This document shows, piece by piece, positions 33,821-51,116 of a stretch of 64,000 nt of DNA; position 1 is the stretch's first letter; the number at the start of each line of letters is the position of its first letter. The stretch lies in the NCBI GenBank assembly GCA_963740085.1, contig CAVUCU010000001.1:1216001-1280000 (forward strand). The letters are read 5' to 3'. The DNA comes from Nitrospirota bacterium (GTDB lineage: Bacteria; Nitrospirota; UBA9217). The translations under genes and the position numbers were made by a program. A model generated the notes under the pieces. That model did no database searches. It had not been told where the DNA came from and worked only from the letters and a program-made list of their open reading frames with translations.

Positions 33821-36079
33821 TTACGCGAACTTCACTGCCTTCACCGCTTTTAATCCGACTGATCCCCGGGTCATCACTCCCAAGGGTTTCAGCTCGATCA
33901 CCTTTTCCCTGCCCTTCTCGTCGATGACCTTCACCTGCGCGCCCTTGCGTACGGGCCTGAAGAGCGCGACCTCGCCGTTCTTCACGTTCACGAGCTTGAC
34001 GCCCTTGCCCGCGCCGGTGAGCGCGGGGATTTCCTTTGCCGCCACGACAACGGCCTTGCCTTCCGTCGTAAGGAACAGGACATTCGGCAGATCGAGGATC
34101 TCCACGCCCAGGATGCTGTCGCCCGGCTTTACGCCGGCGAATTTCTTTCCCGCCCTCGTCGTCGTGGAGTTGAACGGAGCAAGGTCGAATGCGAAGCCGA
34201 TGCCCTTTGTGGAGACGGTCAGCGCCGTTACCTCGCGCGGGGCCAGGGCAAGTTCCGCCTGCGTCTCCGTCTCGTCTCCGGCCAGCGGGCTCGCGAATAC
34301 TGTCGTCAGGTTCATCGCTCCGATCGGCCGTTCGCCGTCTCCGAATCTGAACAGATGCTGGATCGGTTCACCGAACCCGGAGCCGGCCGGCAGGTCAAAG
34401 GCCTTCACGACGTAGACCTTTCCCGCTGACGAGAACACAGCAATGTTGTCCCTCGTATTAGCGGGCAGAATGGAGAGAAGCTCGTCTCCTTCCTTGAACC
34501 GAAGATTCTCGCCCACGGTCTTGACGCGCCTGATCCATCCCATCTTGGTCAGGATCACGGTCACTTCCTCGTGGACGATGAAGTCTTCCTGGGAGAACTC
34601 CACGTCCTCGGCGGCCTTCATCACCGACCTGCGCTTATCTCCATATTTTTCCTTTATCTCGAGCAGCTCAGTCTTGATCAGGCTCCAGATCTTTTTCTGA
34701 CTCGCAAGAATGGCCTCGATATCTTTTTTTTGCTTCGTCTTCTCGTCCTTTTCCTTGAGGATGCGCTCGATCTCGAGACCTACCAGCTTGTAGAGCTGCA
34801 TGTCGAGAATCGCCTTCACTTGATCATCGTCAAGCTTGAAATGCTTCTTAAGCTTCTCTGCAGCATCGTCGCGCGACTTCGCTTTGCGAATAATCTTGAT
34901 CGCCGTATCGAGGTCGTCGTAGAGCACCTCGAAGGCACGCAGAATATGGAGCCGGACCTTGAGCAGTCGCAAGTCATGGGTCAGCCTCTTGGTGGTGATC
35001 TCGTGCCGGAAGTCGAGGAAGTACCTCATGATCTGCTTGAGGGATAACCGCTCCGGCTCCATGTTCGGTTTAAGCGCCGTGAAGTTGATCGGAAAGGTCG
35101 TCTCGAGATCCGTGTGCTTGAAAAGATATGCAGTGACAAGCTCCACGCTCGTTTCGGCCTTGAGCTCAAGCACCAAACGAATCTCATGGGTGGACTCATC
35201 GCGCACAGCCGAGACCTGCGGCAGTTTTCGTTCCTCCGTGAGTCCAATAAGCTTCTCAAGCAGCTTCGCTTTGTTCACCTGATAGGGAATCGACGTGAAG
35301 ACGATCGCCTGTCTGCCCCGCGGGAGATCCTCGACCGCATATTCGCCGCGGATCCTGATGCCGCCGCCGCCCGCCTCATAGATATCCCTTAGCTCTTTTT
35401 TGGAATTCAGGATCTGACCGCCGGTTGGAAAATCCGGGGCCTTTATGAACTTGAGCAGGTCTTTCACTTCGATGGTTGAATTGTCTATCAAGGCCGCGAG
35501 GCCGTCGATCACCTCGCCGATATTGTGCGGGGGGAAAGAGCAGCTCATGCCCACGGCGATGCCCGAGGTTCCGTTCACGAGGAGTTGAGGGAACCGCGCG
35601 GGCAGGACGACCGGCTCCTTGAGCGAGTTGTCATAGTTCGGACGGAAACCAACTGTGTCCTTGTCGATCTCGAAGAGAAGTTCTTCTGCGATCTTCGAAA
35701 GCCTCGCCTCAGTATATCGCATGGCCGCTGCCGGGTCTCCGTCAAGGCTCCCGAAATTGCCCGACCCATCGACGAGCGGGTAACGGAGCGAGAAGTCCTG
35801 GGCCATTCTGACCATGGCATCGTATGCCGCCTGATCACCGTGGGGGTGGAACTTTCCGAGAACTTCTCCGACCACCGCCGCGCTTTTTCTGAACCTGGCC
35901 GTGGGGCCAAGTCTCATTTCCCACATGGCAAAGAGGATCCTGCGGTGCACGGGCTTCAGACCGTCGCGCACATCGGGAAGCGACCGGGACACGATGGTCG
36001 AGAGCGCATAGGTAAGAAACCTGCTTTCGACCTCGGAATGGAGCGCAGTGTTCAAAATTGAATCCTCGAGTATCGGCAT
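33821..36079 (-). CDS. parC: Type IIA topoisomerase subunit A, ParC-like
   Basis: [28 protein letters not shown] catalytic Tyr; short CTD with no QRRGGKG GyrA-box. Start ATG 36079 with SD aggagg. Confidence 0.8.
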
Positions 36080-36235
36080 GAGAACCTCCTTCGTTATCGC
36101 GGTTTCCGGAATGGAATCAATGATACTATCCGTCAACACACAATGCGGTGTTATTTTATCACAAACGCTATTTTATAACAAACAATGCGTATTTTTAAAG
36201 GATGATTTAATTGAAAAGTGGTGTATACTATAGCC

Positions 36236-37093
36236 ATGTTCAACCTGCTGACCAAACAGGCTGAGGCTTATAGACGCGACACCTTTCGCTGTGGCAACTG
36301 CAACCGGGATTTTGAAGCCAAGGTCATTACCTGGGTGGACGTCTCTAAAACGCCTCAGGCCAAACAGGCGCTGCTGAAATGGCAGTTCAACCTTCTCCAG
36401 TGCACTCACTGCGGCTTTCGCAACTTCTCCGGCTCACCCTTTTTCTATGAAGACTTTGAGGAGGGGCTTCTGATCGCCGTATTCCCAAGCATCCCGGATA
36501 ATCGGGGAGAAATCGAGAAGGCAATCCGCGCGAAATACGGCTACTACCCGGCGCTCGAATTTTTTTATGATATGACCCAGCTCTGGATGCTGATCTATTT
36601 TCAAGATCACTACCATGCAAACAGAAACCTGCGCACACTGTCCCGCATCGGACGGGGTGAAGAACGGTTGCGAAAGATGCTGCGGTTCCTGAAAGAGGAC
36701 CAACTGATGATCAACATCCGCGAGAAACTCACCGAATCCTTCTTCAACAATGCCGCGAACGACGAACTCGTGGAGGTCCTGGGCCAGGCCGTCTACTCGC
36801 TGGAAGAGATGCTTCCCTGGCCGATGGACAGGCGTTGCTTGTGCGGGGCGGATCTTGCTCATGAGTTCAAGTGCTGCGGCAAACAGGTTAACCTTGCTGA
36901 GCATGAACTACTGCTCTCGCGGCACTACGTCATCTACTGCCCGATCTGCAAAGAATCCCTCTCCGGCGCCTCATGCGCAGAGTGCGGCAGGGTCTACACC
37001 TGGAAACTCGGTACGGTTGGAACATATAAAAATGACGGCGGCACATCCACACGCAAGAACACTGCGGAACGGAAGACGCAGGCGCACCTTTGA
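36236..37093 (+). CDS. CpXC-domain zinc-ribbon protein
   Basis: FRCGNC...F, FN..QCTHCG...F.Y.D CpXC pattern; additional C-terminal Cys clusters. Confidence 0.75.
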   Translation: MFNLLTKQAEAYRRDTFRCGNCNRDFEAKVITWVDVSKTPQAKQALLKWQFNLLQCTHCGFRNFSGSPFFYEDFEEGLLIAVFPSIPDNRGEIEKAIRAKYGYYPALEFFYDMTQLWMLIYFQDHYHANRNLRTLSRIGRGEERLRKMLRFLKEDQLMINIREKLTESFFNNAANDELVEVLGQAVYSLEEMLPWPMDRRCLCGADLAHEFKCCGKQVNLAEHELLLSRHYVIYCPICKESLSGASCAECGRVYTWKLGTVGTYKNDGGTSTRKNTAERKTQAHL

Positions 37094-37493: not shown

Positions 37494-38831
37494 TTACAAA
37501 ACCGCTGTGGAAAGCGGGCTTGCCTTACTGCCGGTCCCCATCTTGAAATTAAAGATACCCTTAAGATGATACTCTGGCGGTGGGACCAGTGTTGAATCAT
37601 TGTCGGTTAATGTAATATCAAAATCACCAGTTGCCTCGGTTGCCGTTGAACCAGGTGAAAAGGAAATGGTGCCCTGACTCACTTTTTTCAGCGTGGATCT
37701 CTCTCCATTGAAGACAAGGAATATACCGGGGAATTTCTCGTACTGAGAATTGTCTTCAATGGCAAACGTTTTGCCACCGATGCTCGGCATGACACCGTTG
37801 TCCGATTTCTGAATGTCGATCCTGATGACGGTCCTGAAATTTTCATCCCAGACATTTTCCGCAACATTGGCCTGTATTGACCAATACGCATCATTGTTCG
37901 TTGAATAATAGAAATTTGGCTTTACAAGCCCATACTCATCATCAGTGACCGTTAAGTAGTTGATATGGGCCAGATTCTGGTCGACAGTTGCGGCAGTTAT
38001 TGCCGAACTGGTTCCGGTTGTTTCACTTGCCGTTGTACTGCCGGATGAGGCCTGACTGCTTCCGCCTCCGCTGCCGCATGCTGCCAGGAGCGCGACCAGC
38101 ACCGCGGTCATGAGCATCTGTTGAAGGTGTATTCCGTGTTTTATGTGATGGGGCTTGGCATACCCTTCTTCAATGAGCACCTCACCAAGCTTTTTCCGGG
38201 ACCCGGTCTGTTTGAGGAGAGCATCATCAAGTTGTCTGCGCGAGATAGTGCCTGAAGAGACCAGTATCTCCCCTAGCTTAAGCGGGCCGGGCACCGGTTT
38301 GGCATTGCCCTGGTTCTGTTGAAAATCGAGGACGCCGTACAGCTCTCGTTTCGTTAACAGGCCCTGGCGAACCAGAACCTCGCCGAGCTTCTCGCCGCTT
38401 CTCTTTTGATCGGAAATCGCGCGCTCAAGTTGTTCGCTCGTGATTCGTCCTGCCTGAACGAGCAGGTCGCCCAGCAGTCGGCGAACGCCCGCGGCAATCT
38501 TGACCGCGTCCTCGACGCGGTCAAGATGTTCCTGCACAGAAAGTGCTACCTTGATATCCGCAGGATCAATAATATTCATCCTGACCAGTACCTGACCAAG
38601 AAGTTCATTGGTTTTCTTTTGTTCCTCCAACGCGGCTTCGACGTTTTGCCGGGGTAGAAATCCGCCATCAATCAGGATCTGTCCGATGAAGCGCTTATTT
38701 TGTTTTTGTTTCAGCATAGGTAGCTCCTTTGCGTTGCTTACAGCCGCGCTTTGCTTCTTGTACGGAGATTCCGCCATCTTCGTGCCGCTAAAACGTCTGT
38801 CTGCGCGATCTCCATTTTCAGAGTATATCAT
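37494..38831 (-). CDS. Triple MshEN-type (c-di-GMP-binding) domain protein with an internal lipobox and a C-terminal beta-rich domain
   Basis: Six xLGxxL(V/I)xxGxIxxxxLxxALxxQ half-motifs, then MLMTAVLVALLAAC-GSGGG; SD aaggaagg before ATG 38831. Confidence 0.8.
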   Translation of the reverse strand: MIYSENGDRADRRFSGTKMAESPYKKQSAAVSNAKELPMLKQKQNKRFIGQILIDGGFLPRQNVEAALEEQKKTNELLGQVLVRMNIIDPADIKVALSVQEHLDRVEDAVKIAAGVRRLLGDLLVQAGRITSEQLERAISDQKRSGEKLGEVLVRQGLLTKRELYGVLDFQQNQGNAKPVPGPLKLGEILVSSGTISRRQLDDALLKQTGSRKKLGEVLIEEGYAKPHHIKHGIHLQQMLMTAVLVALLAACGSGGGSSQASSGSTTASETTGTSSAITAATVDQNLAHINYLTVTDDEYGLVKPNFYYSTNNDAYWSIQANVAENVWDENFRTVIRIDIQKSDNGVMPSIGGKTFAIEDNSQYEKFPGIFLVFNGERSTLKKVSQGTISFSPGSTATEATGDFDITLTDNDSTLVPPPEYHLKGIFNFKMGTGSKASPLSTAVL

Positions 38832-38860: not shown

Positions 38861-41800
38861 TCACTGGCCGCTGAACCACTTCACGGCGTCGCGGACGCTC
38901 ACTTGGTCAAACTTCATTCTCATCTTGACAAACGGCCCCTCGCTGGTGAAATCAGCCTTCGAGAAATCGCGGTCTTTAAAACCATTGAAATTGTATCCCA
39001 CACTTATCCAGAGGTTCCTGCCGGCGTTGAACCCGACCGATGCGCCGGTCCCGTATTTTTCCTGGCGCAGGCTTAGGGAGTGGAGCCGCATGCCGCGGAG
39101 ACCAATATCCCACTTCTTCGTGACATCGAAACGGCCCTCCAGCCCGACCAGGTCAGTGTATCCCCGATAATCGTTCTCATCGATCCGTTCCTGGACGTAT
39201 TTTGAAGCGTACTGCAAAGAAACCTGGGTCCTGATAGTCGTCTTGATGTTCGCAACAAGGTTGTTGACAAAGCGCTTGTTGTCGTCGTAGGTTGTTATCC
39301 CTCCATGCTGCTCTGACTGTATCAGATCCAGCCGGTCCAGGATGATGACGCGGGTGTCGAAGGGGCGGTGCACAAGGCTCAGACGCAGATCGCTACTGGC
39401 TTTCTCCTCCCCGGCAAGGATGTTGCTCCGGAACGTCTGCAGTCCCAGCGCAAGAGCGAGTCCCTCCCGCACCTCGCCGTTCGCACCCATGAACAAACCG
39501 AACTTGCGTTCGGAATCTGAATCGCGGTTTTCCACCCTCGCGGTCCATGACCATTTTTCCTGACGATATCCTACGCCAAGAGAAGTCGCTGTAAAGTCCT
39601 CGCTGCTCCCCGATGCGGGAGGAACGTTGGTGTTGACAGAATAGGTACCCGTGTTATGCAGCGTCTGGCTTCGATCCAGACCGCCATCCACGCTCCACTG
39701 CTTCGTGATCTGCCAGGACTGCTTCAGTCCAGTGGTGGAGAAAAGCCGCACGCCGTTCTCGGTCGACTGCTGTTCCATGGAGGACCCGATCTGGCCGCCG
39801 GTCCACGGCGATGTCCTGATCCCGATGCGCGTGGTCTCGGTGTCTATCGTGGAACCATTCGTCCACTCCTGGTCGGCGAAGAACGTTGATTTCTCATTGA
39901 GCTTGTAGTCAGCCCCGACGGTCGTCCTCGTCGGGAAATCGACGTTGTTGTTCGCTCCGATGGACTGATCGCGACTGATCCGGACCGCAGTCTTGTCGGT
40001 CACCTGGGCCCTTATGCCGGAGAAGAGCTGGTCGGACCGTTGCGTCTCGCCGAAGCTCTGTGTCCCAGCAGTGCTCAGGGTGTCATCAGCCTGGCGCAAA
40101 CCCGCCGTCACCGTATACCGTCCCGCAGTGTAATTGCTTCGCACCTCGGCCATGTCGCGCACCGCGCCGGTGGATAAATTGTTCTGCTCGAACACCTCTC
40201 CGCCAATGGTCCACAGTTTGTTGATCCGATAATTGAGGTCCGCTCCGATCTTCCGGGTGCCAGTCTCGCTGCCACTCTGCTGACCAAGCCCGAACCCGCC
40301 TTGCTGTTCCCGAACGTAAGCCTTACCCTCAGCTTTTTCCGAACGGTGCTGCAACTCCGCGAGAAATGCGTCACCTTGGCTCGTGACGCCCGCCAGGTCC
40401 GTCTTTGTCGTGGCGGCCTCCGCCCGGAGCAGGTCATACTCACCGAGCTTGACCTTCGCATCGACCCCTTCGAGGTTGCCCGATCCTCCCACCTGGCCCT
40501 CATGAACGTGGGAGGCGCCGACCTCTAAGCGGCTGTCGAGGAACCGCGCGGCAGCGCGGCCGCCATAGTTGTATTTCGCATCCTCGTCGTCAAAAGATTC
40601 ATATTCCGCAACAATGAAAATTGGATTGAAATTCCCGTCACGGCTGTATACCGGCATCTTGAAGAAAATGGTACCGGCATCGTAGTCGATAGTGTAGTCC
40701 AGGTTGTTTGTCAGCCGCTGGCTCGAAAGAATGACCTCGCTCTTGAACCGGTCCCGGGTCTCGATCGTGATCGTTTCTGAATTGAGCACGATATTCTTCC
40801 GTGACAGGTGGTAAAGTCCCGAGGTACCGTCGCCAGAGTACTCGTCCCGCACGTGGGCCTGGTTTGTATCCGCCAGAAAAACCGTGTATTCGTAATCCTT
40901 GGTCTTCATCTCCGACTTGAACCCGGTGAAGTTCCGGTTGTACCGTGACAGCTCGGTGATGGAAAGACCAGCATTAAAATCACCGAATAGGGCATAGAAC
41001 TGGTCGCGCTCCAGTTTGATGTAGATGCGCTTAGCGCTCGCCGCATCGTTGCCCTGAAGCGTACCATCGCCGTACAGGGTGTAGTACTTGTTCGGATCGA
41101 TGGTCTGATACAGGCTCGGCTGGTCAGTGCTGTCTGTTTTTTTACTGTCATAGGCCAGCGTGAGAAGCCACTCTCCCTTGATCCTGCCCTTGGCATAGAA
41201 GGCCAGGCGGTCCTCTTCGTAGAACTTGTCATCGCCTCCACCAGAAGTGAAGGTCTCCATGTTGCCCTTTACGGTATCGTATCCCACCGTGCCTTCGGCA
41301 AGGCCGACGAGGACCCAGTCCCGGTCCCCGGGTTTCAGCCACGTGCGGATTTCCTCAAATCGTTCAGCGTCAAGTTGCACACGAACAATCGCTTCTCCTG
41401 TCTGCGTTGTCGGAACAAGCTCGATCATCGCCACGCCGTCCTCGCCGACAAGATACCGGTATCTATCAGTATTCAGTGCAATGAGCGGCGATTGTTGAAG
41501 CTTATCAGCGCTCTGCTTGGGGATATACGGCGGATCAAGAAAATAATCGGCCCGCACTCCCTCCCTGGCGGGATGTCCATCCTTATCCAAGAGTTGTATG
41601 GCAAGAATTATGGGGGTTTTGCCATCCGCAATGAGCTTCGATCTCTCGGGCAACAGTATAGCCTTTGCCGGCGGTCCTGAATAGTGTACGGTCCGCTGCA
41701 GCCGCTTGACCTCGAAATCGGCGCCATCAGAGAGAACGAGTTCGAATTTATTGTCTCCCTCCTGTAAATGTATCCCGCGCCAGAAGCTGATGGCCACAGT

Positions 41801-44800
41801 GCCGTCAGATTTTTTGATCATTCCTTCATAATGAAGGAGATCCACCGCGTCGCCATTCAAAAAGAGTTTCAGTTTCTGGCTCGGATCGTGCTTTATAGCA
41901 ATTCTCAGACTCGCAATAGCAGGGTGATAGCCATCAACAGGCCAGAGCCACTCCAACCCCGGCTCTGCCTTTTCAACCCAGGCGGCATCGTAGTCCGGCA
42001 TGGTCTTGCCGTCGCCGATAGGCGTCAGGGACTCTGATTGCGGGTTCTCTAGCCAGATCTCGCCCTCGGACAAGCCCGTAATTGAAACGGACTTCACGCC
42101 ACTCGTTTCTTTGTCGTTGCGTACATAGTCCCAAGCGGAATCCTTGCGAGTGTCGACTCTGAACTCAACACGGCGGTTCAGCGCCCGTCCCTCTGCGGTC
42201 TTATTGGTCGCAACCGGTTCGTCAGGTCCCTTCCCGACGATCATGATCTGATCCGGGGCGAGCCGGAGTGTCTCGGCAATGACCTTGGCGACCGTCCTGG
42301 CGCGGCCTCGCGACAGCACGTAATTATCCGGGAACTCCTTGCTTGCCCTTGGGCGAATACGGTTGGAATCGGTATGACCGGTAACGGTAATATGCTCGAT
42401 ATTTCTTGATTTCATTTGTTCAATGATCTTCGATATTTCTTTCTGATCGCTCGAAGACAGGTCCGCCTTCAGCGAGGCGAACTTGGGATGGAATATGGCA
42501 TCGGGTTCGCTCATCTGACGCTTTAATTTGTAGCGGACAAGGTTCGTGTCAGCCACGGGCGTCTTCGCTCCTTGTGCTGCCGGAGTGTCGAAAACCAGGA
42601 ACGACTTCGTGGGCAGGTTTCCCTCAGCGCCTTGCGCCGGCACTGTCGCAGAGAACATGAGGGAACCCTCCCACCCGGCAGGCCGATCGCCCAAACGGTA
42701 GGTCAGGACGCCGTCGCTGAGGCCAGGATCAGGGACGCTGCCGTCAGCCAGAAAGCTGCTTCCCGGTGAGTATGTTACGCCGTCCGGCATCATTACGATC
42801 AGTCGGAGGTTTCGTACGGAGACCGATCCCACATGCAGTTTGGCTGAATAGGCGATGGTGTACTGGCAGTTCGCGTCGGGGAGACTGCAATTCTCATTCA
42901 CGAACGGCACCATGGCCGTATAGTCGTTATGGTCTTTCGCGTCCGGCCTCGAAGTCCCGGTCTGGTTCGTGGCCAGGGAATTCGTCTTCACTTCGCCGAA
43001 GCAATGCTCGCCGAAGATACACGTTTGGGCTGTAGCAAGGGAAGCCTCCGGCTCCCCTGCATCAACATGGTTAATCAAATCGCTCCTGGTCGTGACCAGG
43101 GATGTCTGCAGCTCAAGGCCGACTTCGCCGGTCTGTTTCGCTTTCGGAGGACGGAGCGCCAGATGGAAATCGGCCCTCCACAAGGAACCACCTTGCAAAT
43201 CCACGAACTGCGAAAATGACCTGCCCGCGAAACGCGTGTTATCCTCGCACTGCGCGGGCTCGTATTCCTCGGGCACCGTGACGGTATCAAGCTGCACCAC
43301 ATGAGTCCCCGGGAGAACAGCCGCGAAATGATACATCCCATTCTTGTCGGTTATGACATAGGATCCGTCCTCAAGGAAGATACGGACCCCTGCAATACCG
43401 TGCCCGTCTTTACCGCAGCCTTCAAGGATCCGGCCGACAATGGTCGTCCTGCTCAGAAAGAGATCCTCGGTCACCAGGACCGTAGCCGTCGCAATGTTGG
43501 ATACCACGCCGGAGGAGCCGTTCGCCACAGCCGTGTTCAAGGCCTTTCCAAGGTTAGCGCCGGCGCCCACTTCGGCCACGTAGGTGATGTCCGCTTTTCC
43601 CGCTGCGATGAGATTGCCGACCGTAAAGGTGACGCTCCGGCCGTCCTCGGAGATGACAGGCTCGGTCGCGGGAACACTGTTCAGGCGCACTGACCCTTTC
43701 CGGTACCGGAAACCGGCCGGCAGCCGGTCAGTAATGGTCACCCCCGGCGCCGGTGCGCTCTCGTCGATGTTTTCCACCGTAAGTTGATAGGGAACAAAGT
43801 CACCAATTGCCGCCGAATCCTTGCCTGCGGATTTGATGAGATAGAGCCGGGTGCTCAACGGGTCAATGGGAATATCGATATGGATCGCCGGCCCGGCGTT
43901 CACCAGGAACTCCTCACTGCGCGAGCCGGGCTCGGCAATGGCAAAAGGGGCTCCCGGCAGGGCCTGCAAAACACGGGTCGCGACGTTCGAAGGAGACCGA
44001 AAGCCTGAGGGCGGCAGGACGTCAAGGCGATAGCGGCCCGGGCTGATAAAGGGGAACCGGTATCCGCCTGGTGACATGGAGTACGCCCTGCCACTGCTGT
44101 CCACTGCCGTGCCACCAGTGATGAGGTTGGACGGAAAAGTCGAGATGCCGTCATCACCGTATACGGTCGCGGGATTACCCGTAGCGGTGTTCACCAGGGT
44201 GACGATCGCCCCGTCGACCGGCTGACCAGTCGTGCTGTTAAACAAAACGCCATAGGGATCGACCAGCGCAGTCGTTGTGTGGGAATCCGTCGGGTCCGCC
44301 GGGTCCACGTAGAGCGCTGTAATATGCGAATCGTTCACGAGATTCAGAAGACCGTTGTTGTCAATCTTTTGATCGGAGCTGGATTGTATGACCCCCATAA
44401 AGACGCCGGTGTTGGGTCCAGTCTCGGTCAGCTTGAGCACTTCTGTGTCCCCGGTCTTGTCGTCATGAACTGTCACCACGACGGTTTCCGCGACCGCGGG
44501 ATCGTTATTCTGGTCGCCGTCAGTCAATCGGATGAAGACCGGCTCGCCGGTGTGATACTGCGTCGGCGAAATGAGCGACAGCGGCTTGGCCAGATCGAGC
44601 CTTGCGGACGATCCTGCCGGCATCGGCGCGTCAAGAGGAACAAACGGTCCGGCCAGGTTTCCGCTGGGGCTATAGGATGTTGAATGAACGACAACAGTCT
44701 GTGCGCCCAGCGCATCAGGCGCGTACTGGAGGAATTCTAAGACCGCGGTAGTCCGCTGGACCATGGACGTCACTGACGCCGCAGGAGACGTTACGGTCAC

Positions 44801-45046
44801 CGGACTTCCCGCAGGCCCGTTTGTATACGTCGCGGTTGCGACATTGGTGATGATGGTGCCGGATGGCGTGATGGACCAGCCGACGGATGAGAACAGGATG
44901 ATGAAAAGGAATGATAACAGAGAAATAACTAGAGAAGAAAAAATTGGGGCCGCTTCAGCGAACGGGCGCAACGCGACCGTGCCTTCATCCTCATGGGTGG
45001 AGGTACGGTCGATGTGCGCGTCATGTGTGCCTAAGCGGTCCCTCAT
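38861..45046 (-). CDS. Giant DUF11 + OmpA-like peptidoglycan-binding + predicted C-terminal beta-barrel outer-membrane protein
   Basis: Hydrophobic signal; complete DUF11 (LIKS..GDFVPY..ITDRLP..NTA); OmpA motif TGHTD...LSRGRA...G.GPDEPVA.N...GRALNRRVE; ~800 aa of amphipathic beta-strands at the C-terminus. Confidence 0.85.
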   Translation of the reverse strand: MRDRLGTHDAHIDRTSTHEDEGTVALRPFAEAAPIFSSLVISLLSFLFIILFSSVGWSITPSGTIITNVATATYTNGPAGSPVTVTSPAASVTSMVQRTTAVLEFLQYAPDALGAQTVVVHSTSYSPSGNLAGPFVPLDAPMPAGSSARLDLAKPLSLISPTQYHTGEPVFIRLTDGDQNNDPAVAETVVVTVHDDKTGDTEVLKLTETGPNTGVFMGVIQSSSDQKIDNNGLLNLVNDSHITALYVDPADPTDSHTTTALVDPYGVLFNSTTGQPVDGAIVTLVNTATGNPATVYGDDGISTFPSNLITGGTAVDSSGRAYSMSPGGYRFPFISPGRYRLDVLPPSGFRSPSNVATRVLQALPGAPFAIAEPGSRSEEFLVNAGPAIHIDIPIDPLSTRLYLIKSAGKDSAAIGDFVPYQLTVENIDESAPAPGVTITDRLPAGFRYRKGSVRLNSVPATEPVISEDGRSVTFTVGNLIAAGKADITYVAEVGAGANLGKALNTAVANGSSGVVSNIATATVLVTEDLFLSRTTIVGRILEGCGKDGHGIAGVRIFLEDGSYVITDKNGMYHFAAVLPGTHVVQLDTVTVPEEYEPAQCEDNTRFAGRSFSQFVDLQGGSLWRADFHLALRPPKAKQTGEVGLELQTSLVTTRSDLINHVDAGEPEASLATAQTCIFGEHCFGEVKTNSLATNQTGTSRPDAKDHNDYTAMVPFVNENCSLPDANCQYTIAYSAKLHVGSVSVRNLRLIVMMPDGVTYSPGSSFLADGSVPDPGLSDGVLTYRLGDRPAGWEGSLMFSATVPAQGAEGNLPTKSFLVFDTPAAQGAKTPVADTNLVRYKLKRQMSEPDAIFHPKFASLKADLSSSDQKEISKIIEQMKSRNIEHITVTGHTDSNRIRPRASKEFPDNYVLSRGRARTVAKVIAETLRLAPDQIMIVGKGPDEPVATNKTAEGRALNRRVEFRVDTRKDSAWDYVRNDKETSGVKSVSITGLSEGEIWLENPQSESLTPIGDGKTMPDYDAAWVEKAEPGLEWLWPVDGYHPAIASLRIAIKHDPSQKLKLFLNGDAVDLLHYEGMIKKSDGTVAISFWRGIHLQEGDNKFELVLSDGADFEVKRLQRTVHYSGPPAKAILLPERSKLIADGKTPIILAIQLLDKDGHPAREGVRADYFLDPPYIPKQSADKLQQSPLIALNTDRYRYLVGEDGVAMIELVPTTQTGEAIVRVQLDAERFEEIRTWLKPGDRDWVLVGLAEGTVGYDTVKGNMETFTSGGGDDKFYEEDRLAFYAKGRIKGEWLLTLAYDSKKTDSTDQPSLYQTIDPNKYYTLYGDGTLQGNDAASAKRIYIKLERDQFYALFGDFNAGLSITELSRYNRNFTGFKSEMKTKDYEYTVFLADTNQAHVRDEYSGDGTSGLYHLSRKNIVLNSETITIETRDRFKSEVILSSQRLTNNLDYTIDYDAGTIFFKMPVYSRDGNFNPIFIVAEYESFDDEDAKYNYGGRAAARFLDSRLEVGASHVHEGQVGGSGNLEGVDAKVKLGEYDLLRAEAATTKTDLAGVTSQGDAFLAELQHRSEKAEGKAYVREQQGGFGLGQQSGSETGTRKIGADLNYRINKLWTIGGEVFEQNNLSTGAVRDMAEVRSNYTAGRYTVTAGLRQADDTLSTAGTQSFGETQRSDQLFSGIRAQVTDKTAVRISRDQSIGANNNVDFPTRTTVGADYKLNEKSTFFADQEWTNGSTIDTETTRIGIRTSPWTGGQIGSSMEQQSTENGVRLFSTTGLKQSWQITKQWSVDGGLDRSQTLHNTGTYSVNTNVPPASGSSEDFTATSLGVGYRQEKWSWTARVENRDSDSERKFGLFMGANGEVREGLALALGLQTFRSNILAGEEKASSDLRLSLVHRPFDTRVIILDRLDLIQSEQHGGITTYDDNKRFVNNLVANIKTTIRTQVSLQYASKYVQERIDENDYRGYTDLVGLEGRFDVTKKWDIGLRGMRLHSLSLRQEKYGTGASVGFNAGRNLWISVGYNFNGFKDRDFSKADFTSEGPFVKMRMKFDQVSVRDAVKWFSGQ

Positions 45047-45099: not shown

Positions 45100-46200
45100 T
45101 TACTGGACAACAACCTGATACTTGATTACGGCGGAATTTCCTTGCGCGACCGTCAGGCCGGAAACCGTTACTATGTTTGTAGTAAAATCAGCGCCGTCAG
45201 CATCGCCGGTGTTCGTCTTGCAAACATTGTTCACTACGATACCGGACCCTCCGGCGCAAGGGTTGGAGGGGGCAACACCATCATCGTATTGGGTCCTGAA
45301 TGCGATATTTCCTGCCGAGATCATGGCATTGAGGTTGTCAGTAATTGCTACATTCGACGCATCAGCACCACCCGCGGCGTTTGTTACTGTCACGGTGTAC
45401 GTGATCACTGCTCCGGGTATCGCTTTGGGGCTCGCAAACAAGTTTACTGGATCCCAATACACCGTGGCCGTCTTGCTCACGGTCAAGCCCGCGGCAGTAA
45501 TGGTAAAGGTGCCACTTGCGGAGTGTTTCCCGTCACGCGCCACGTCGCTGGCAGCGCTCCCTGCTGCATCTCCGAATATTGTCATTACACAGATTGAGAT
45601 TGGCAGCCGTTTGTGTCCCGAGCTGTCTCATGTGGATGCGGTCAAGGTCCCCGCGTCTACGGCTGTCGCCAGAAGGTCGTAACCCGCGATTGAACCATTT
45701 GTCGCGGTTGCCGGTATATCACCGACGATCAGTACGGTAATGCTTGCGCCTGACGCGATGTCACCGAATGTGCCGGCAGTAGCGTACAGTGTATCGCCGG
45801 CGTCCCATTTGCCGTCATTGTTGTTATCGCGATAAATATTCGGAGTGGTCAACGTCCAGGTGTTCGTCGCCTTCGATACGGGTGACAGGGCAAAGCGCAT
45901 GGCCGTATTGCTCATATTCGAGACGAGGAACTGGATCGCCTGGAAGGTTGAACTCGGTGCGCTGGTCACATCGCTTTGTTTCGTAACAGTCAAATAGATC
46001 ACTCTGTCAACCACAAAGGTGACGGTGTTCCCCGGCACCGCGGTTTGCGGTACCGTGCCGACAGTATAATTCACTGTCGCCTGATTCGAGATACTGACTC
46101 CCGCGGCCGTATTCGCCGCCTGCGCGAACTGCGGGACCGCCACGGCAATCGCCACAAACAGCAGAATTGCCGCTATCTTATACATACTTTGCTTTATCAT
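45100..46200 (-). pseudogene. Secreted DUF11 pilin-like subunit interrupted by an in-frame TGA at 45628-45630 (pseudogene or sequence error)
   Basis: ORFs 45628..46200 and 45100..45585 are in the same frame and together align end-to-end with paralogue 46902..47936. Confidence 0.8.
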
Positions 46201-46386
46201 TGTTTCCTCCTAGTTTTTAATTAATTACGTTATTTAAATTGTGTTCCCTTTTTGTTTGCAGCCTGTTTATATCTCTTTTCACCTCCTAAGAATCATTCGC
46301 ATAGTGCACCTCCGCTCTTAGGTCCTTGAAAATCAGCATTTGTTCATCCATAATCTTATCCTCCAAATAAATAATTTAGAATGCGT

Positions 46387-46890
46387 CTATTTAATCCTTG
46401 CCTTGAATGAAACACTACCTGTACCACCAGCGGGGAGTGGCTTGGTCAGGGTCCATCTAATACCGGTGTAGTCTTCCGCCCCGGCCTGGCGCACCATTCC
46501 CTTCGCGTTTTTGACCATCAGTTTCTCCGGTGCGCTGTAGGTCTTCCCGCCGTCTGTTGAAAACTCGATGCGGGTGTTGCTCCCTTCTACGCTGTTGTCG
46601 AGATAGGTCATATTCTTGTCAATAGGATTCGTGATCACGACATCGGTGGCGGGCTGCTTGCCGGTGTTGGTATAGTGCGTCGTGAAAACCACCGTGTCTC
46701 CCGGCACCGTCGCCGCCGCTTTGGCGACATCGACCCGCTTAACGACCTTCTCGCCCTTTTCATTTCTTCCCGCAACCTCTACTTCCGCAACGGACTTGAG
46801 CGCTATGGCACTTTTCTGCTGTGTCCAAGCGGCCATCGGCGCCAGCAACACCAGCGCCAAAACTACCTGTAATATTCTTTGCATTATCAT
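46387..46890 (-). CDS. Secreted single DUF11-like domain protein (167 aa)
   Basis: Signal peptide; VPGDTVVFT..YTNTG..PATDVVITNPI...IRWTL...VSFKARIK*. Confidence 0.85.
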   Translation of the reverse strand: MIMQRILQVVLALVLLAPMAAWTQQKSAIALKSVAEVEVAGRNEKGEKVVKRVDVAKAAATVPGDTVVFTTHYTNTGKQPATDVVITNPIDKNMTYLDNSVEGSNTRIEFSTDGGKTYSAPEKLMVKNAKGMVRQAGAEDYTGIRWTLTKPLPAGGTGSVSFKARIK

Positions 46891-46901
46891 CTCCCCCTTT
46901 T

Positions 46902-47936
46902 TTATTTGATCTTAACTTCAAAAGTTATCGTTTGTATCGGCGACGCGCTCGTCAGATTTCCGAGCTTCACGGTCACAGTATTCGGTGTCGTCACCCCCAC
47001 GTCCCCGGCGTCGGTGTCGGCGATATCAGTAAGGGCTGCATTGTTCAGCCGGAGTGAATTGGCGATATACACCGTGTTCAACGGCAGCGGGTCGCTGATC
47101 ACCACGTTGTTCGCTGTGCCTCCCCCCGATGTGGCCGCAACAATCGCGTACCGGAGCGTCGCCCCCGGGAGGGGCAGGCCTCCGCCCCATTGGTCAAGTA
47201 TTGTAACGGTCTTGCTTAGGCTCACGTTCAATGCGGCAACGGATATTATGTTGAAAGCGCCGCTCGCCGAGTGCTTTCCGTCCCGCGCTCCGTCGCCGGC
47301 AACGCTTCCCGCGATGTCCAGGAACACCGTGTCGATACCCGATGTATTGGGCCCCGCGGTCTGCGTGGAAACATTCAAGGTTCCGGCATCGACCGCTGTC
47401 GCCACCAGGTCATATAGCGCTGATTGGCCGATCGTCAGACCCGCGGGCGCGTCCGCGACGATCAATACCGTGACCGATGAGTTTGATACAAGGTCCCCGA
47501 ACGTGCTTGCGTCGCTGTACAGGGTGTCTCCCGCGTCCCAGGTGCCGCTGTTGTTATTGTCTCGAAAGATTCGGACATTGTTCATGGTCCATGTGTTCGT
47601 GGCCTTCGATACGGCCGAGAAAGCGAAGCGCAGGGTCGTATTGCTCGTATTGGAGACGAGAAACGACAGGGCTACGTTGCTGGAGGTCGGCGCGGTATTC
47701 ACATCCGAGTTCTTGGTCACAACCATGTTGATCGCCCGGTCTACCATGAAGGAATTCCCGGCCGTCGCAGTATGGTTCACGCCGCCGCTGAAAAAACTGA
47801 CTGAGACGGTGTTTGTGATGACCATCCCGGCAGGTGTGCCCGCAGCCCGGGCATTACCCGCTGCAAAAAAGAACCCGGCAAGGAATACGATGATTCCCCA
47901 GCATGCCGCGTAATATATTTTTTTTCTGTTTTGCAT
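46902..47936 (-). CDS. Secreted DUF11 pilin-like subunit (344 aa)
   Basis: Signal ARA|A; N-terminal AGTPAGMVITNTV; DNNNSG Ca-loop-like motif; C-terminal DUF11 LSKT..PGATLRY..ISDPLP..ITFEVKIK*. Confidence 0.88.
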   Translation of the reverse strand: MQNRKKIYYAACWGIIVFLAGFFFAAGNARAAGTPAGMVITNTVSVSFFSGGVNHTATAGNSFMVDRAINMVVTKNSDVNTAPTSSNVALSFLVSNTSNTTLRFAFSAVSKATNTWTMNNVRIFRDNNNSGTWDAGDTLYSDASTFGDLVSNSSVTVLIVADAPAGLTIGQSALYDLVATAVDAGTLNVSTQTAGPNTSGIDTVFLDIAGSVAGDGARDGKHSASGAFNIISVAALNVSLSKTVTILDQWGGGLPLPGATLRYAIVAATSGGGTANNVVISDPLPLNTVYIANSLRLNNAALTDIADTDAGDVGVTTPNTVTVKLGNLTSASPIQTITFEVKIK

Positions 47937-47990
47937 AGTCGTATTCGTTCAGCCTTGTCCTTCACCGGCCGGGACAATGCCTTCAGTGAC

Positions 47991-50900
47991 TTAGTTGATC
48001 GATACCTTAAACTTCACGGTAAAGCTTGCGCCGCCTCCGTTCAGCGTCCCGCTGGGTTTAATGCGCACCCCTTTTACGAGAGGATCGTAACCGATGGTCG
48101 TAGGGGGATAGACGTACGGCGGACCGCCGCCGGGTTGGTATGAATAGGAAACCGCGTTCGCATAGGTCCACGGCGTCGTCAGGCCGCAGCCACTGCACGA
48201 GAAGGTCACGGCGCTGCCGGCGGTATCAACGTACATGGTCATATTGGCAGGGATAACATCCGTGATGGCGATCGAGTCCGCGTCCGCCACGCCGCTGCCG
48301 TTGTTGATCACCTGTATGGTATATTGGACCTCCGCGCCGGGAATCGCCTTTGCGGACGCCGATACGCCGTTGATGGGATCAGAAATGACCGAAGACGATT
48401 TCACAACCATAAGAGACGGCAAAAGCGATACGTTGAACGTACCGACGCCTGTGTGAGAAACCGTGCCTTCGGTACCCTCCGGAGCCGTTACGGAAACGGT
48501 CCAGTTTCCGGAAGGCGCAGGCGCCGTGAGCGGGAAAGCGTATTCGAACGTTTTGGTCGCGACACCCGAGTCCGCGACCTGGGGCATGGCCACAGCGTTG
48601 ATAACGGTCACGTTGCCCGGGTCCTTGACGGTGATCATCGGCTGCGTCGTCGCGTTGTTGCTCGCGTTGATATCGAAGCTCCCGAAGGGGTCGCTCACGA
48701 CTGCCCGCAGGTAGACAGTGCCGGTGGTAAATGATGCGGGTATGGTCACTAAGGGATAGGCCGTGCTGTATGCAGTGACGCTGTTCACATTTATGACGGT
48801 CGCCGAAGGCAGATCGACATACGATCGGTTCCCGCCGTTTATCGGATACACCGTCAGGGCGCGACTGATGCCGGTGTTCGTAATGGTGAGGGTCCATTTG
48901 TTCCCCTGAGCGCAGGTCTGTGGCGGCGAGTAGGGCAAGTTGAACGTCTGAAGGTACACCGTACCTCCGGCGGCAAAGGCAATACTCTTCGTCTGAGTAA
49001 GGCTGATTGCTCCACAGGTGAGATTAACCCTTACGTTTCCGGTCCTGCCGTTTGTACAAGACATATAGAGGTTTACCGGAACATTATTTGAATTTGGATC
49101 GAGGGTCATGGGTAACTGCATAGCAACATCTTGTGCCCATATCTGAGATGAAGTTGCAGCGCCAATCGTGATAGTGCTGTTATTACCCGAGATGGATCGT
49201 GATATCGGCCCGGGCGCTCCTCCGCCTGCTCCATAGAGGTATAGCTGCTTGAGGCCGGTGACGGGGACCTGCGACTGGGAGACGGTGATCGCAGGCGCCG
49301 CTGGTGTGGCACCCGTCCCCGCGGGGTTCGTGATAGTGGCGGTGTTGTTGATAAGGGTACCAATTGCGGCCCCCCCTGCGATCGTCGTGGATACGACGAT
49401 TGCGGCGGTCCCGTTGGCAGGAACCAAGATGTTGGACGCCGTAAGCACTTGCCCCACGATAGTACATGTCGCACCCGCAGGACAACTTATGACCGAAAGA
49501 TTTGTCAGTGTCGCCTGGAACGTGTCCGTCACCGAGACACCGGAGACTGCTGCACCGCCGGTCTCGTTCAGCGTGATCGTATACGGTATAACGTCGCCCG
49601 GATTCTGGTCCCCACCGTTCGTATCCGTCCAAGTCTTTGTTGAGGTGGAGAGATTGGAGTTAACCGGAATGTTCACGGTAACGCTATCATTGTTGGAGTT
49701 GTAGTCCGTGATGGAACCCGGGATGACGAGGCTTGCGGTGTTGCTGAGCAGGCTGGGCGCCGGTGCGCTTACCGTACCCGTTATCGTATAGGTCACATAC
49801 CCGTACCGGGGAAGGTTGGCGGTGGTGTTGATGTTGTTCCCGCTCCCTGAGGCAGCGCCGCAGGTTGCACCTCCTGATCCCGCGCAGGTCCAGGCAACGC
49901 CGGTTATGGCCGCCGGCACGGTGTCTTGGATCCCGACTCCGGTCGCTGTCACGTTGTTGGGACCGGTATTACTTGCGATAACGGTATATCGGACAGTGTC
50001 CCCCGCTGACGCGGTCGTCGTCGAACCGCTCGTCACGTCCAAGAATGTCTTGGTGATGGCGAGGTCGATTGCGGTTGTCGTGTTCTGGTTGCTCACCAGG
50101 AGGTTGCGGATCTCATGGTAGTTCGTGGAGCCGCCGGTGCTGGCGGCGTAGCCGATCATGAGCTTCTGGGCTGTCGAGATCGCGGGGAGCGCCTGGTTCG
50201 TGATCATCTGCGTATAGACAAGCGGGGAGCCGTAGCCGAACGCAACCCAGACATTAGCGACCGGGTTTGGCGCCGGGCTGATCTGTATACGCACCTTGCG
50301 GTAGCTCACACCGGTCTGGGAAGGCCTGGGTGATCCGTTGTACCACAGTGAGCCGTTGTTGGCAGAGGTGGCTATCCAGGGATAAGAATTTGTGTTCGAC
50401 GTTTGTCCGATGGCGCCCCCGCCGAAACCGACGACGGAGCCGCGAATTGTCACGGTGTTGGGTCGTTGTGAAGTGCCATTGTAGCGTCCTTCACAGCCAT
50501 AGGCAAAGTTACCGAATTCATCGACGCCGATTCCCACATAGCCGCCGCTGATTCCCGGAACACTCGGGTTAACCGGACTGCACGCAGCAGTAGACAGTTT
50601 CTGTGCATAACCCAGGGAGCCGCCGAAGGCGCCTATGTTGAAGGGACTTGCCCCACCATCGAACAGGTAGACGCTATAGCCGTCTGCGCCGTTCCCGCCC
50701 CAAGTGGCGTAATCAAACTCGATCAGGAGCCCGGCGCTCAGGTCAAACGTGGTGGTGTTATAGGCAAAACCGGTCTGGTTACCTGTGGCGTTGGTCAGGC
50801 GCAGCCATCCCTGTCCTGCCGGATCAATGGCGCCATTTCCGGTCAGAACAGCGGAGCTGGGATTTCCGCCCAAGATCCAGCCCGTACTGTTCGTGTCGGT

Positions 50901-51116
50901 CATCGGCGCATTGATGATGATCGAGGCGGAGGCGTTTACGGCAAAACAGACCGCAATCACCGTTGCCAGGACGAATGAGCAAAGTATGGATCCAGACTGC
51001 CGGAAATAGGTATTCCTGCAAGGAGCTGAGACCTTTCCCTGTGGCAAAGCTTTCTTTGTTCCGATAAAGTTCATCTCACGTTGTCCCGAATAATCTCCCG
51101 CTGATCTTTTACTCAT
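47991..51116 (-). CDS. Large secreted adhesin: L-type lectin-like domain + DUF11 domains
   Basis: GWLRLT...Q.G, IEFDY..WGG.GADG, GSLGY, GIGVDEFGNF, IGYAASTGGSTNYHEI lectin pattern; three DUF11 domains. Start may be ATG 51074. Confidence 0.85.
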   Translation of the reverse strand: MSKRSAGDYSGQREMNFIGTKKALPQGKVSAPCRNTYFRQSGSILCSFVLATVIAVCFAVNASASIIINAPMTDTNSTGWILGGNPSSAVLTGNGAIDPAGQGWLRLTNATGNQTGFAYNTTTFDLSAGLLIEFDYATWGGNGADGYSVYLFDGGASPFNIGAFGGSLGYAQKLSTAACSPVNPSVPGISGGYVGIGVDEFGNFAYGCEGRYNGTSQRPNTVTIRGSVVGFGGGAIGQTSNTNSYPWIATSANNGSLWYNGSPRPSQTGVSYRKVRIQISPAPNPVANVWVAFGYGSPLVYTQMITNQALPAISTAQKLMIGYAASTGGSTNYHEIRNLLVSNQNTTTAIDLAITKTFLDVTSGSTTTASAGDTVRYTVIASNTGPNNVTATGVGIQDTVPAAITGVAWTCAGSGGATCGAASGSGNNINTTANLPRYGYVTYTITGTVSAPAPSLLSNTASLVIPGSITDYNSNNDSVTVNIPVNSNLSTSTKTWTDTNGGDQNPGDVIPYTITLNETGGAAVSGVSVTDTFQATLTNLSVISCPAGATCTIVGQVLTASNILVPANGTAAIVVSTTIAGGAAIGTLINNTATITNPAGTGATPAAPAITVSQSQVPVTGLKQLYLYGAGGGAPGPISRSISGNNSTITIGAATSSQIWAQDVAMQLPMTLDPNSNNVPVNLYMSCTNGRTGNVRVNLTCGAISLTQTKSIAFAAGGTVYLQTFNLPYSPPQTCAQGNKWTLTITNTGISRALTVYPINGGNRSYVDLPSATVINVNSVTAYSTAYPLVTIPASFTTGTVYLRAVVSDPFGSFDINASNNATTQPMITVKDPGNVTVINAVAMPQVADSGVATKTFEYAFPLTAPAPSGNWTVSVTAPEGTEGTVSHTGVGTFNVSLLPSLMVVKSSSVISDPINGVSASAKAIPGAEVQYTIQVINNGSGVADADSIAITDVIPANMTMYVDTAGSAVTFSCSGCGLTTPWTYANAVSYSYQPGGGPPYVYPPTTIGYDPLVKGVRIKPSGTLNGGGASFTVKFKVSIN

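Follow-up and report, generated by a model that had tools for sequence, protein, structure and literature searches.

Tandem MshEN_N domains directly ahead of a lipobox in a Nitrospirota genome: a portable receptor-plus-helix module with a possible role in c-di-GMP-gated protein export

Introduction

Cyclic diguanosine monophosphate (c-di-GMP) controls the surface structures of bacteria via transcription, via enzymes and ATPases at the cytoplasmic side of the membrane, and via adhesin retention of the LapD type. Here we describe a gene of a Nitrospirota bacterium (GTDB lineage Bacteria; Nitrospirota; UBA9217), the product of which carries three tandem MshEN_N domains directly in front of a hydrophobic helix and a lipobox. 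The gene is located at positions 37494 to 38831 on the reverse strand of a stretch of 64,000 nucleotides (assembly GCA_963740085.1, contig CAVUCU010000001.1, positions 1,216,001 to 1,280,000), which will be called the window. While MshEN_N is a known receptor family, recognized here by a hidden Markov model (HMM) and by its motif, the architecture appears to be new and possibly represents a new regulatory principle. The reading to which we lean, by a modest margin over doubt, is that the c-di-GMP receptor forms the cytoplasmic N-terminal (n-) region of a cleavable signal peptide.

In the LapD-LapG system, a cytoplasmic c-di-GMP receptor decides on the fate of a surface protein across the inner membrane. 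LapD combines degenerate GGDEF-EAL domains and a HAMP domain with a periplasmic domain, by which a protease is sequestered, and it is separate from the signal peptide of the protein that it controls. The window protein has no sequence relationship to this system, the likeness being its inside-out logic. With classical lipoprotein signals, which are processed by Lgt and LspA and have the lipobox pattern [LVI][ASTVI][GAS]C, the window protein shares basic residues, a short hydrophobic (h-) region, the lipobox L-A-A-C, and a Gly/Ser tether, but its n-region is a folded domain of about 200 amino acids (aa) that is predicted to bind a second messenger. Extensions of n-regions and remnants of signal peptides can be functional, as exemplified by the extended signal peptide region of autotransporters and by enterococcal pheromones, which are derived from lipoprotein signals.

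The MshEN domain is best compared on the basis of MshE from Vibrio cholerae (structure 5HTL; PMC5013675). The sections of that paper on motif and binding describe two 24-residue motifs with a 5-residue spacer, which form a unit of 53 residues, and a Gln at motif position 24 that bonds to ribose and phosphate of c-di-GMP. Binding depends chiefly on hydrophobic residues and two Gln: mutation of any single conserved hydrophobic residue lowers the affinity more than 10-fold, while mutations of charged residues, including Arg9, change it at most about 5-fold. A 65-residue MshEN_N subdomain by itself binds c-di-GMP with a dissociation constant (KD) of 0.35 uM (PMC5013675, supplementary table 6). The window protein has the same 53-residue unit with L, G, L, L, and Q at the contact positions, but it contains three tandem N-subdomains, neither MshEN_C nor an ATPase, and its last helix continues into a helix that resembles a signal peptide. 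Three modules in tandem are likewise present in PilF from Thermus thermophilus. Its motif position 1 is occupied by K or L in place of Arg, and passages of PMC11731258 report that one of the modules, GSPII-B, binds c-di-GMP with a KD of 6 nM although Lys and Leu replace both Arg. However, the PilF modules are full GSPII domains that precede a cytoplasmic hexameric ATPase, whereas the window protein has minimal modules with a membrane helix and an exported domain behind them.

A third group, the proteins of the NfrB/EpsG type, combine MshEN with a glycosyltransferase or a chain-length-determinant tyrosine kinase, and the window protein has partial matches to the respective NCBIfam models via its MshEN part (NfrB, E 3.7e-15; EpsG, E 2e-14). 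The common denominator is c-di-GMP control of envelope or matrix production, and relatives of the window module are found in exosortase and extracellular polymeric substance (EPS) loci. However, the receptor of these proteins regulates an enzyme at the cytoplasmic side, while the window protein is devoid of any cytoplasmic output domain. Its arrangement is absent from the list of MshEN architectures in supplementary table 4 of PMC5013675, in which MshEN_N-Peptidase_M23 of Acaryochloris comes nearest. Full-text searching of the literature revealed no description of an MshEN domain fused to a signal peptide or a lipoprotein; both terms occur in PMC12943098 and PMC8844925, in unrelated passages.

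Architecture of the gene product and conservation of the lipobox

The open reading frame (ORF), from the first codon of which all residues are numbered, contains the following features downstream of the MshEN_N domains:

37494 to 38831, reverse strand: ORF of 445 aa plus stop codon (37494-37496), from translation
38079 to 38117, reverse strand: hydrophobic h-region, M239-A251, 13 aa, from the sequence
38076 to 38087, reverse strand: lipobox L249-A250-A251-C252, Cys codon TGC at 38076-38078, from the sequence and the conservation in homologues
37968 to 38075, reverse strand: disordered tether rich in Gly, Ser, and Thr, G253-L288, from both structural models
37497 to 37967, reverse strand: all-beta C-terminal domain, conserved, of no known family, from the model and family searches

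A preliminary description of the window had claimed that the last MshEN motif runs directly into a hydrophobic stretch and a lipobox, followed by a Ser/Thr linker and a beta-rich domain, and had named the conservation of the Cys as a point to check. This turned out to be correct. Q237 and Q238 are followed by M239-A251, by C252 (codon 38078-38076), and by GSGGG, and the models predict residues 253-288 to be disordered and residues from about 292 to 436 to be an all-beta domain. A word-indexed protein search yielded 454 matches at E <= 0.001, and the best 120 of these 454 were used for the conservation counts that follow. In their alignment Cys252 and Q237 are invariant (120/120 each), which is far beyond chance. 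The residue at -1 of the Cys is A in 76 and G in 44 of the 120 proteins, and L, V, M, I, or F are found at -3. The protein thus has a lipobox pattern directly after a short h-region, as is typical for substrates of Lgt and LspA, and basic residues are present N-terminal to the helix only, none after it. The host genome contains one match to Peptidase_A8 (LspA) and two to LGT above the cut-off. The best 120 homologues cover 87-100% of the query and mostly have 378-445 aa, with one protein of 587 aa, and the named relatives are metagenome-assembled genomes (MAGs) of Nitrospirota and Desulfobacterota, i.e., Geobacter, Geomonas, Smithella, and Desulfurivibrionaceae.

Because MshEN belongs with pilus ATPases, a signal of the type IV prepilin type (class III) was also considered. 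Class III signals are marked by a Gly at -1 and a Glu at +5, relative to the beginning of the hydrophobic helix. In the family, position 238 (-1) is Q, H, R, N, E, or K, but never G, and position 243 (+5) is A, S, or V, but not Glu, so that this candidate was rejected.

An AlphaFold2 model that was based on the family alignment contains twelve helices for three bundles, a helix from 227 to 253, the disordered segment 253-288, and the beta domain 292-436. It was used for secondary structure only, because its mean predicted local distance difference test score (pLDDT) is 64.8, with a predicted template modelling score of 0.37. When the mature region was modelled alone, the mean pLDDT was 79.6, with about 90 in 10-residue blocks of the structured part. 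The tether has a pLDDT below 50 in both models, and its length and sequence vary between homologues. The mature domain matches no Pfam or NCBIfam family, and a Foldseek comparison with the PDB gave no match at E <= 0.001. Small beta-barrel lipoproteins were found as weak matches in a wide VIA-align comparison of folds, the best of which was LpqH (4xin_B) with a Z score of 5.8, which is below the level counted as meaningful, and a root mean square deviation of 4.0 over 104 aligned residues. In the ESM Atlas the mature domain matched unnamed clusters alone, at 0.92.

The same mature domain also occurs without the receptor. In the loci L031 and L032 it is preceded by a lipoprotein signal peptide of the classical type, the position of the Cys being unchanged, and L032 stems from the same Geobacter MAG as a fused form (L012). 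A search for short forms, limited to proteins of less than 244 aa, resulted in 16 matches, and 11 of these were retrieved. Among the 11, four start with a classical lipoprotein signal (P0272, P0280, P0282, P0285), and three are relic forms (P0270, P0273, P0283), which consist of the last half-motif, the helix, and the lipobox only in front of the domain; some of the remaining short matches may be fragments from contig ends. Taken together, the forms with a classical signal and the relic forms indicate that the stretch which begins with the last MshEN helix and ends at the Cys is able to act as a lipoprotein signal peptide of the ordinary kind. The stand-alone lipoprotein of L031 (7620-8600, forward strand) adjoins an orthologue of the giant protein that is encoded upstream of the window gene, and it has an extra C-terminal segment with a haem-binding motif, CSACH (CXXCH).

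Predicted binding of c-di-GMP

The receptor part consists of three modules:

38532 to 38690, reverse strand: MshEN_N module 1 (F48-Q100), half-motifs 1a and 1b with a 5-residue spacer, from HMM and alignment
38319 to 38477, reverse strand: MshEN_N module 2 (L119-Q171), half-motifs 2a (LLG) and 2b (KLG), from HMM and alignment
38121 to 38279, reverse strand: MshEN_N module 3 (K185-Q237), half-motifs 3a (KLG) and 3b (KLG), from alignment and model

The six half-motifs that had been noticed before were mapped on the translation to F48-Q71, L77-Q100, L119-Q142, K148-Q171, K185-Q208, and K214-Q237. The spacer within each pair has exactly 5 residues, and together with the two 24-residue motifs this results in three units of 53 residues. 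The claim of three domains was further corroborated by the NCBIfam model NF053729 (c-di-GMP_motif, MshE-related), which has 53 positions and matches in three stretches with 153 bits versus a cut-off of 38 (E 1.3e-45). The HMM scan that had been suggested for MshEN gave a divided result, however, because the Pfam model PF05157 (MshEN/T2SSE_N) did not match the window protein at E <= 1, and a weak match to DUF4388 (28.1 bits) was the only Pfam match. The PF05157 model does work in this lineage, as a neighbouring gene in locus L009 matches it. A profile search of solved structures with Met39-Ala251 as query identified the N-terminus of T. thermophilus PilF (6f8l) as the best relative (E 2.6e-18), with query residues 9-199 aligned to PilF 166-358, followed by MshE (5htl, E 2.9e-7).

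The three modules differ in their conservation. Module 1 is the most divergent, with F at position 1 of half-motif 1a and N at the Gly position of 1b. Module 2 contains the best NF053729 stretch (residues 120-171) and aligns to residues 6-59 of MshE (5htl) and to GSPII-B of PilF. Module 3 has K at position 1 of 3a, which is R in 55 of 79 representatives of the family (one per cluster of 50% identity, see below), and in the AlphaFold2 model its last helix continues into the hydrophobic stretch as a single helix from 227 to 253. The contact consensus, (R/K/L)1, L2, G3, G10, L17, L21, Q24, is fully present in 2b and 3b and nearly so in 2a and 3a, and Q24 is found in all six half-motifs of the window protein. 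Among the 79 representatives L2, G3, L17, L21, and Q24 are kept in all six half-motifs, and Q24 is present in 75, 71, 73, 76, 68, and 79 of them, respectively.

The half-motifs of the window protein begin with F, L, L, K, K, and K, and the replacement of the canonical Arg by K, L, or F had raised the doubt whether c-di-GMP is bound at all. For K and L this worry is largely removed by the results on PilF, on the basis of which the consensus was extended to (R/K/L)LG, and a hydrophobic first motif residue even predicts high affinity, as stated in passages of PMC11731258; the F in 1a still deviates. Because modules 2 and 3 fit the extended consensus and the contact positions are kept in the 79 representatives, at least these two modules are expected to bind c-di-GMP.

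It is conceivable, although in our opinion unlikely, that the repeats no longer bind c-di-GMP and form a helical scaffold for oligomerization or membrane docking in front of an ordinary lipoprotein signal or anchor. Such cases seem to exist, since PilF GSPII-A (in passages of PMC11731258) and PilB_3 from D. geothermalis (in supplementary table 6 of PMC5013675) have MshEN-like motifs and no detectable binding. The deviation of module 1 at two key positions and the missing report of PF05157 are in line with such a scaffold. However, a scaffold does not readily explain that Q24 is retained in 68 to 79 of the 79 representatives in every half-motif, and L2, G3, L17, and L21 likewise, that modules 2 and 3 agree with the extended published consensus, and that genes of family members are repeatedly found beside genes for PilZ and HD-GYP proteins.

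Distribution of the module over different exported proteins

The preliminary description had proposed a search for homologues with other C-terminal passengers. These were found, starting from loci that match residues 39-250 only: the same N-module precedes many other exported domains, which follow either a lipobox or an Ala-x-Ala (AxA) site. The passengers include a right-handed beta-helix after LTGC/GGGG (L021, L024), a CAP domain after TSYA/D (L025, L026), a CXXCH cytochrome (L027), fn3/Big_7 repeats (L028), and an unnamed beta domain of about 130 aa after DAEA/E, DAQA/D, EAMA/G, EAEA/G, or DAQA/G (L017, L020, L009, L030, L035). An alignment of 14 N-modules has a mean column identity of 63%, helix included.

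A profile of this alignment was searched against 1.84 billion cluster representatives and yielded 194 matches at E <= 1e-30. The number rose to 2434 with a threshold of 1e-10 and to 21220 with a threshold of 0.001, where ordinary MshEN proteins are included. The whole module is present in 79 of the best 150 representatives, in 77 of the 79 within the first 40 residues. A Pfam search with 100 of the best 150 (the first 100 of the 120 that have a length of 300-1200 aa) added Big_5, Sel1, DUF4082, and Peptidase_C39-like domains to the passengers; a lipobox-type Cys follows the helix in every member of the Peptidase_C39-like group. The passengers are mostly domains that are typical of exported or envelope proteins. 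For the unnamed domain of about 130 aa, which is the commonest other passenger, neither an NCBIfam family nor, by profile search, a PDB relative was found. The full N-module (E <= 1e-40) occurs in 27 of 301 sampled genomes of the phylum and in 23 of 63 genomes of the family of the window genome, with one or two copies each, and the window genome itself has one copy. Its occurrence on dozens of sequence clusters with at least eight types of cargo, in Nitrospirota, in Desulfobacterota including relatives of Geobacter, and in a Gallionella genome, indicates that it is a general device and not a single oddity.

By simple patterns, the putative cleavage sites of the 79 representatives were classified as 7 lipoboxes, 41 AxA sites, 21 loose small-x-small motifs, and 1 without a site, while 9 proteins were too short; in addition to the 7 lipoboxes, a lipobox-like C/GGGG of P0147 and P0148 was missed by the pattern. 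As a control, enrichment was analyzed in the 68 representatives whose sequence continues for 60 residues or more beyond the beginning of the h-region. A lipobox-type Cys is present in 9 of the 68. Of the other 59, 38 have an AxA at +12 to +34, compared to 21.5 +/- 3.3 after shuffling (none of 1000 shuffles reached 38) and to 17 of 59 in a control interval of equal width (+36 to +58). The -1 Ala has a peak at +21 to +24. Similarly, a Cys is found at +8 to +30 in 14 of the 68 proteins versus 2 of the 68 at +31 to +53.

Two observations were made with proteins that also carry the receptor. In locus L009 (11211-13962, forward strand) a gene of the window type is directly followed by a paralogue, in which the same N-module is combined with an AxA site and the unnamed beta domain of about 130 aa, and genes for a PapD_N-like (fimbrial chaperone-like) protein and a PilZ protein come next; this passenger might be a chaperone-dependent fibre subunit. 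Larger proteins of 904 to about 1180 aa (P0192, P0200, P0201, P0209, P0216, P0234) have a different architecture, in which most combine an Hpt domain with several MshEN_N units. In the four that were inspected for this feature (P0192, P0200, P0201, P0209) a hydrophobic stretch follows the MshEN_N units, and then a C-terminal part with TSP3 and/or dockerin, so that MshEN again precedes an apparently exported region.

Proposed role of the c-di-GMP receptor as part of a signal peptide

Domain content, conservation, architecture, and portability of the module, as well as its genomic context (see below), were established directly. For topology, ligand binding, lipidation and cleavage, and regulatory coupling we infer the following. 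The gene product would be a pre-prolipoprotein, the n-region of which has about 200 aa (Met39-Q238) and contains, in place of a few basic residues, three tandem MshEN_N four-helix bundles. From the last helix of bundle 3 the chain would pass directly into the 13-residue h-region and the lipobox L-A-A-C252, with no linker in between. Insertion would occur by the general secretory (Sec) pathway, with the N-terminus of the protein in the cytoplasm and the C-terminus outside, a topology that is suggested by the basic residues in front of the helix, by the need of the receptor for the cytoplasm, and by the passengers, which are mostly of the exported or envelope type and include c-type cytochromes. 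The attachment of c-type haem occurs outside the cytoplasm. Lgt would then lipidate Cys252 and LspA would cut in front of it, which is the simplest reading for the window gene, given its short h-region, its invariant lipobox, and the homologues that are lipoproteins. For most other members, processing by signal peptidase I is the simplest reading, because AxA is enriched. Cleavage would release a lipoprotein, comprised of the flexible tether and the small beta domain, that may work together with the neighbouring giant surface system of the DUF11/OmpA type, and it would leave behind a membrane-anchored stub with three MshEN domains.

Because the ligand-binding helix and the core of the signal peptide are one helix, occupancy by c-di-GMP, above all of module 3, would be well placed to control a post-translational step. 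This step could be the access of the h-region to the targeting or translocation machinery or the presentation of the cleavage site to Lgt/LspA. A more far-reaching and only tentative proposal, to which we give clearly less credence than to the signal peptide itself, is that the unit of three MshEN_N and the helix is a portable second-messenger-gated signal peptide, by which c-di-GMP decides on insertion, cleavage, and release of an envelope or matrix protein. In that case the h-region might be unmasked from the hydrophobic ligand groove, or the cleavage site might be repositioned, and the receptor stub that stays in the membrane might itself have a function in signalling.

Chief among the alternatives is a bitopic receptor that remains uncleaved, a reading that we regard as less probable than cleavage, but well worth considering. 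The helix would be a permanent signal-anchor and the whole protein would stay in the inner membrane, with MshEN_N in the cytoplasm and the beta domain in the periplasm. c-di-GMP would act by oligomerization or by LapD-like inside-out signalling, or the receptor would simply localize the outer domain. The Cys could carry a lipid in the uncleaved protein or have another role. A cytoplasmic N-terminal domain, one transmembrane helix, and an outer domain are a common topology in bacteria, and the conservation of the helix sequence across all classes of passengers is what would be expected of a working transmembrane element. That 21 of the 79 representatives have a loose small-x-small motif and one has no site after the helix also fits an anchor. 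However, a hydrophobic run of 13 residues is short for a stable anchor, and anchoring explains neither the invariant Cys in its lipobox context (120/120) nor the enrichment of AxA (38 of 59 versus 21.5 in shuffles). In addition, the same mature domain is an ordinary lipoprotein elsewhere, and allosteric signalling via one helix to passengers as different as cytochromes, CAP domains, a beta-helix, a C39 peptidase, and Ig repeats is hard to picture.

The idea that the MshEN receptor is a giant lipoprotein n-region had already been put forward in the preliminary description. The invariant Cys with its lipobox, the homologues with classical signals or relic receptors, and the portability of the module speak for it. 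Several points weigh against it. The signal peptide is not located at the extreme N-terminus with a short basic n-region; instead, the Cys is residue 252, i.e., 214 residues from Met39, far outside the usual position of a lipobox, and no documented case was found in which Lgt and LspA act after a folded domain of about 200 aa. Cleavage and lipidation are deduced from motifs and homologues, the confidence of the full-length model is low, and the AxA test is crude, with just a loose small-x-small motif in 21 of the 79 representatives and no site in one. The conservation of the helix sequence, RLQxMLxxAVLxAxLSL, among proteins with different passengers would be expected of a functional membrane anchor no less than of a signal peptide that is discarded. 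Concerning the receptor, PF05157 does not match, and parts of PMC12002112 report that a GSPII domain of PilF with small deviations from the motif does not bind, which is relevant in view of the divergent module 1. Lastly, some relatives of the gene are found away from the giant surface system (see below).

The presence of a module of sensor plus signal on many exported proteins suggests that c-di-GMP may act on protein export or maturation itself. If this were true, it would be a direct post-translational control of Sec-dependent export for many unrelated cargoes, and a receptor that sits within the cargo's own signal peptide would represent a novel, very direct level of regulation, at which each exported protein carries its own sensor. 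It would also assign a likely regulatory input to the giant DUF11/OmpA surface system and to exosortase/EPS loci. In the host genome 24 matches to GGDEF were found.

Translational start and integrity of the gene

The start of the gene was tentatively reassigned on the basis of the following features:

38715 to 38717, reverse strand: probable true start codon, Met39 (product of 407 aa), from homologue starts, Shine-Dalgarno (SD) sequence, and model
38724 to 38729, reverse strand: SD sequence AAGGAG, 6 nt before the ATG at 38717, from the sequence

The ATG at 38831, which had been taken as the start, is probably 38 codons too far upstream, and translation probably starts with the ATG at 38717 (Met39). 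This ATG is preceded by the SD sequence, and the arrangement of AAGGAG, 6 nt, and ATG is also present in L002. In 108 of the 120 homologues the gene calls start at positions that correspond to window residues 39-41, and a database entry that is 100% identical (P0001) is a 407-aa call of the same gene. The first window residue that is covered by the tblastn match is 38 in L009 and 37 in L010. The frame of L009 opens at the first matched codon, after an in-frame stop, and that of L010 one codon ahead of it, so that these homologues have no room for an extension of 38 residues. Residues 1-46 are disordered in the full-length model. The 38-codon extension (38718-38831, reverse strand) is open in the window and its nearest relatives, and the SD sequence of the probable true start reads in frame as Lys-Glu within it.

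It is almost certainly not the case that the fusion is an artefact, either because a cytoplasmic MshEN gene and a lipoprotein gene were joined by an assembly or frame error or because the lipoprotein is translated from an internal Met. Stand-alone lipoprotein versions of the C-domain do exist, and stops or frame changes occur in some relatives (L007, G206, G212), as would be expected in that case. However, the fused frame is open in the best 120 homologues and in most full-length loci. A contig of an independent run (X2), which stems from a relative of about 94% identity, spans the whole gene in one piece, and thus the gene was not created by an assembly error; the suspicion that reads or homologues would reveal two genes is contradicted by this contig and by the homologues. 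The contigs of three further runs (X1, X3, X6) cover parts of the gene only. The X2 gene differs by an in-frame insertion of 6 nt in the tether and by a compensated -1/+1 pair upstream of Met39, which is located at 38752/38757 within the extension. An internal start was rejected, because the internal Met codons are poorly conserved (M239 is present in 76 and absent from 44 of the 120 homologues, M241 is present in 22 and absent from 98) and, as had been stated before, no SD-like sequence precedes them; separate translation of the lipoprotein is therefore not a feature of the family. The frame changes in L007 (10001-11241) and the in-frame stops in G206 and G212 may indicate pseudogenes or assembly errors.

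Genomic context

Upstream of the gene, genes of the same orientation encode a putative surface system:

38861 to 45046, reverse strand: protein of 2061 aa with DUF11, CarboxypepD_reg, and OmpA-like domains, conserved neighbour of the C-domain gene
45100 to 51116, reverse strand: co-oriented DUF11-repeat proteins of 161, 190, 167, 344, and 1041 aa
37502 to 37517, reverse strand: terminator-like hairpin with a T run behind it, which overlaps the end of the MshEN_N gene itself, from a pattern match alone, with 3 such sites in comparison to 1.8 expected

The link to this operon, which had been part of the preliminary description, is supported in relatives, but it is not obligatory. The order of the giant gene and the DUF11 genes is kept in L001, L002, L004, and L007, and pieces of the system lie within 10 kb in L011, L013, L014, L016, and L029. 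The C-domain was found in 14 of 64 genomes of the family, and strong orthologues of the giant protein (best E <= 1e-170) in 25 of 64. The giant is present in 12 of the 14 genomes with a C-domain, and the two genes are neighbours on one contig in 8 of the 14, whereas the C-domain occurs in only 2 of the 39 genomes that lack a strong giant orthologue, a count that is limited by kinship and incomplete genomes. On the other hand, the C-domain gene is not beside a giant orthologue in 6 of the 14 genomes, and no giant or DUF11 gene was detected by tblastn within about 10 kb in 5 of 14 full-length loci with long flanks (L008, L009, L010, L012, L018), which is why the tie is not regarded as obligatory.

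Other neighbours are connected to c-di-GMP or to the matrix. The gene in L009 is accompanied by genes for a DUF6982-MshEN protein, two PilZ proteins, a REC-HD-GYP protein, and the PapD_N-like protein, and HD-GYP proteins are encoded nearby in L010 and L030. The members with a beta-helix (L024, 3511-18391) and a CAP domain (L025, 3120-15828) lie inside exosortase/EPS loci with Wzz, Poly_export, Wzy_C, glycosyltransferases, and EpsH. A search of the whole window with Rfam gave no match at the gathering score, and thus no c-di-GMP riboswitch was found in it.

The C-terminal half of the 2061-aa protein comprises about 1000 aa that belong to no known family, and the best PDB sequence relative had an E of 0.094, i.e., none was found. 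The 1041-aa protein matches TIGR04226 (isopeptide-forming fimbrial domain) with 35.5 bits at a cut-off of 30. Downstream, a divergently oriented gene for a CpXC-domain protein (36218-37093, forward strand) and a gene for a topoisomerase subunit of the GyrA/ParC type (33821-36139, reverse strand) follow, and this order is kept in L001 and L007.

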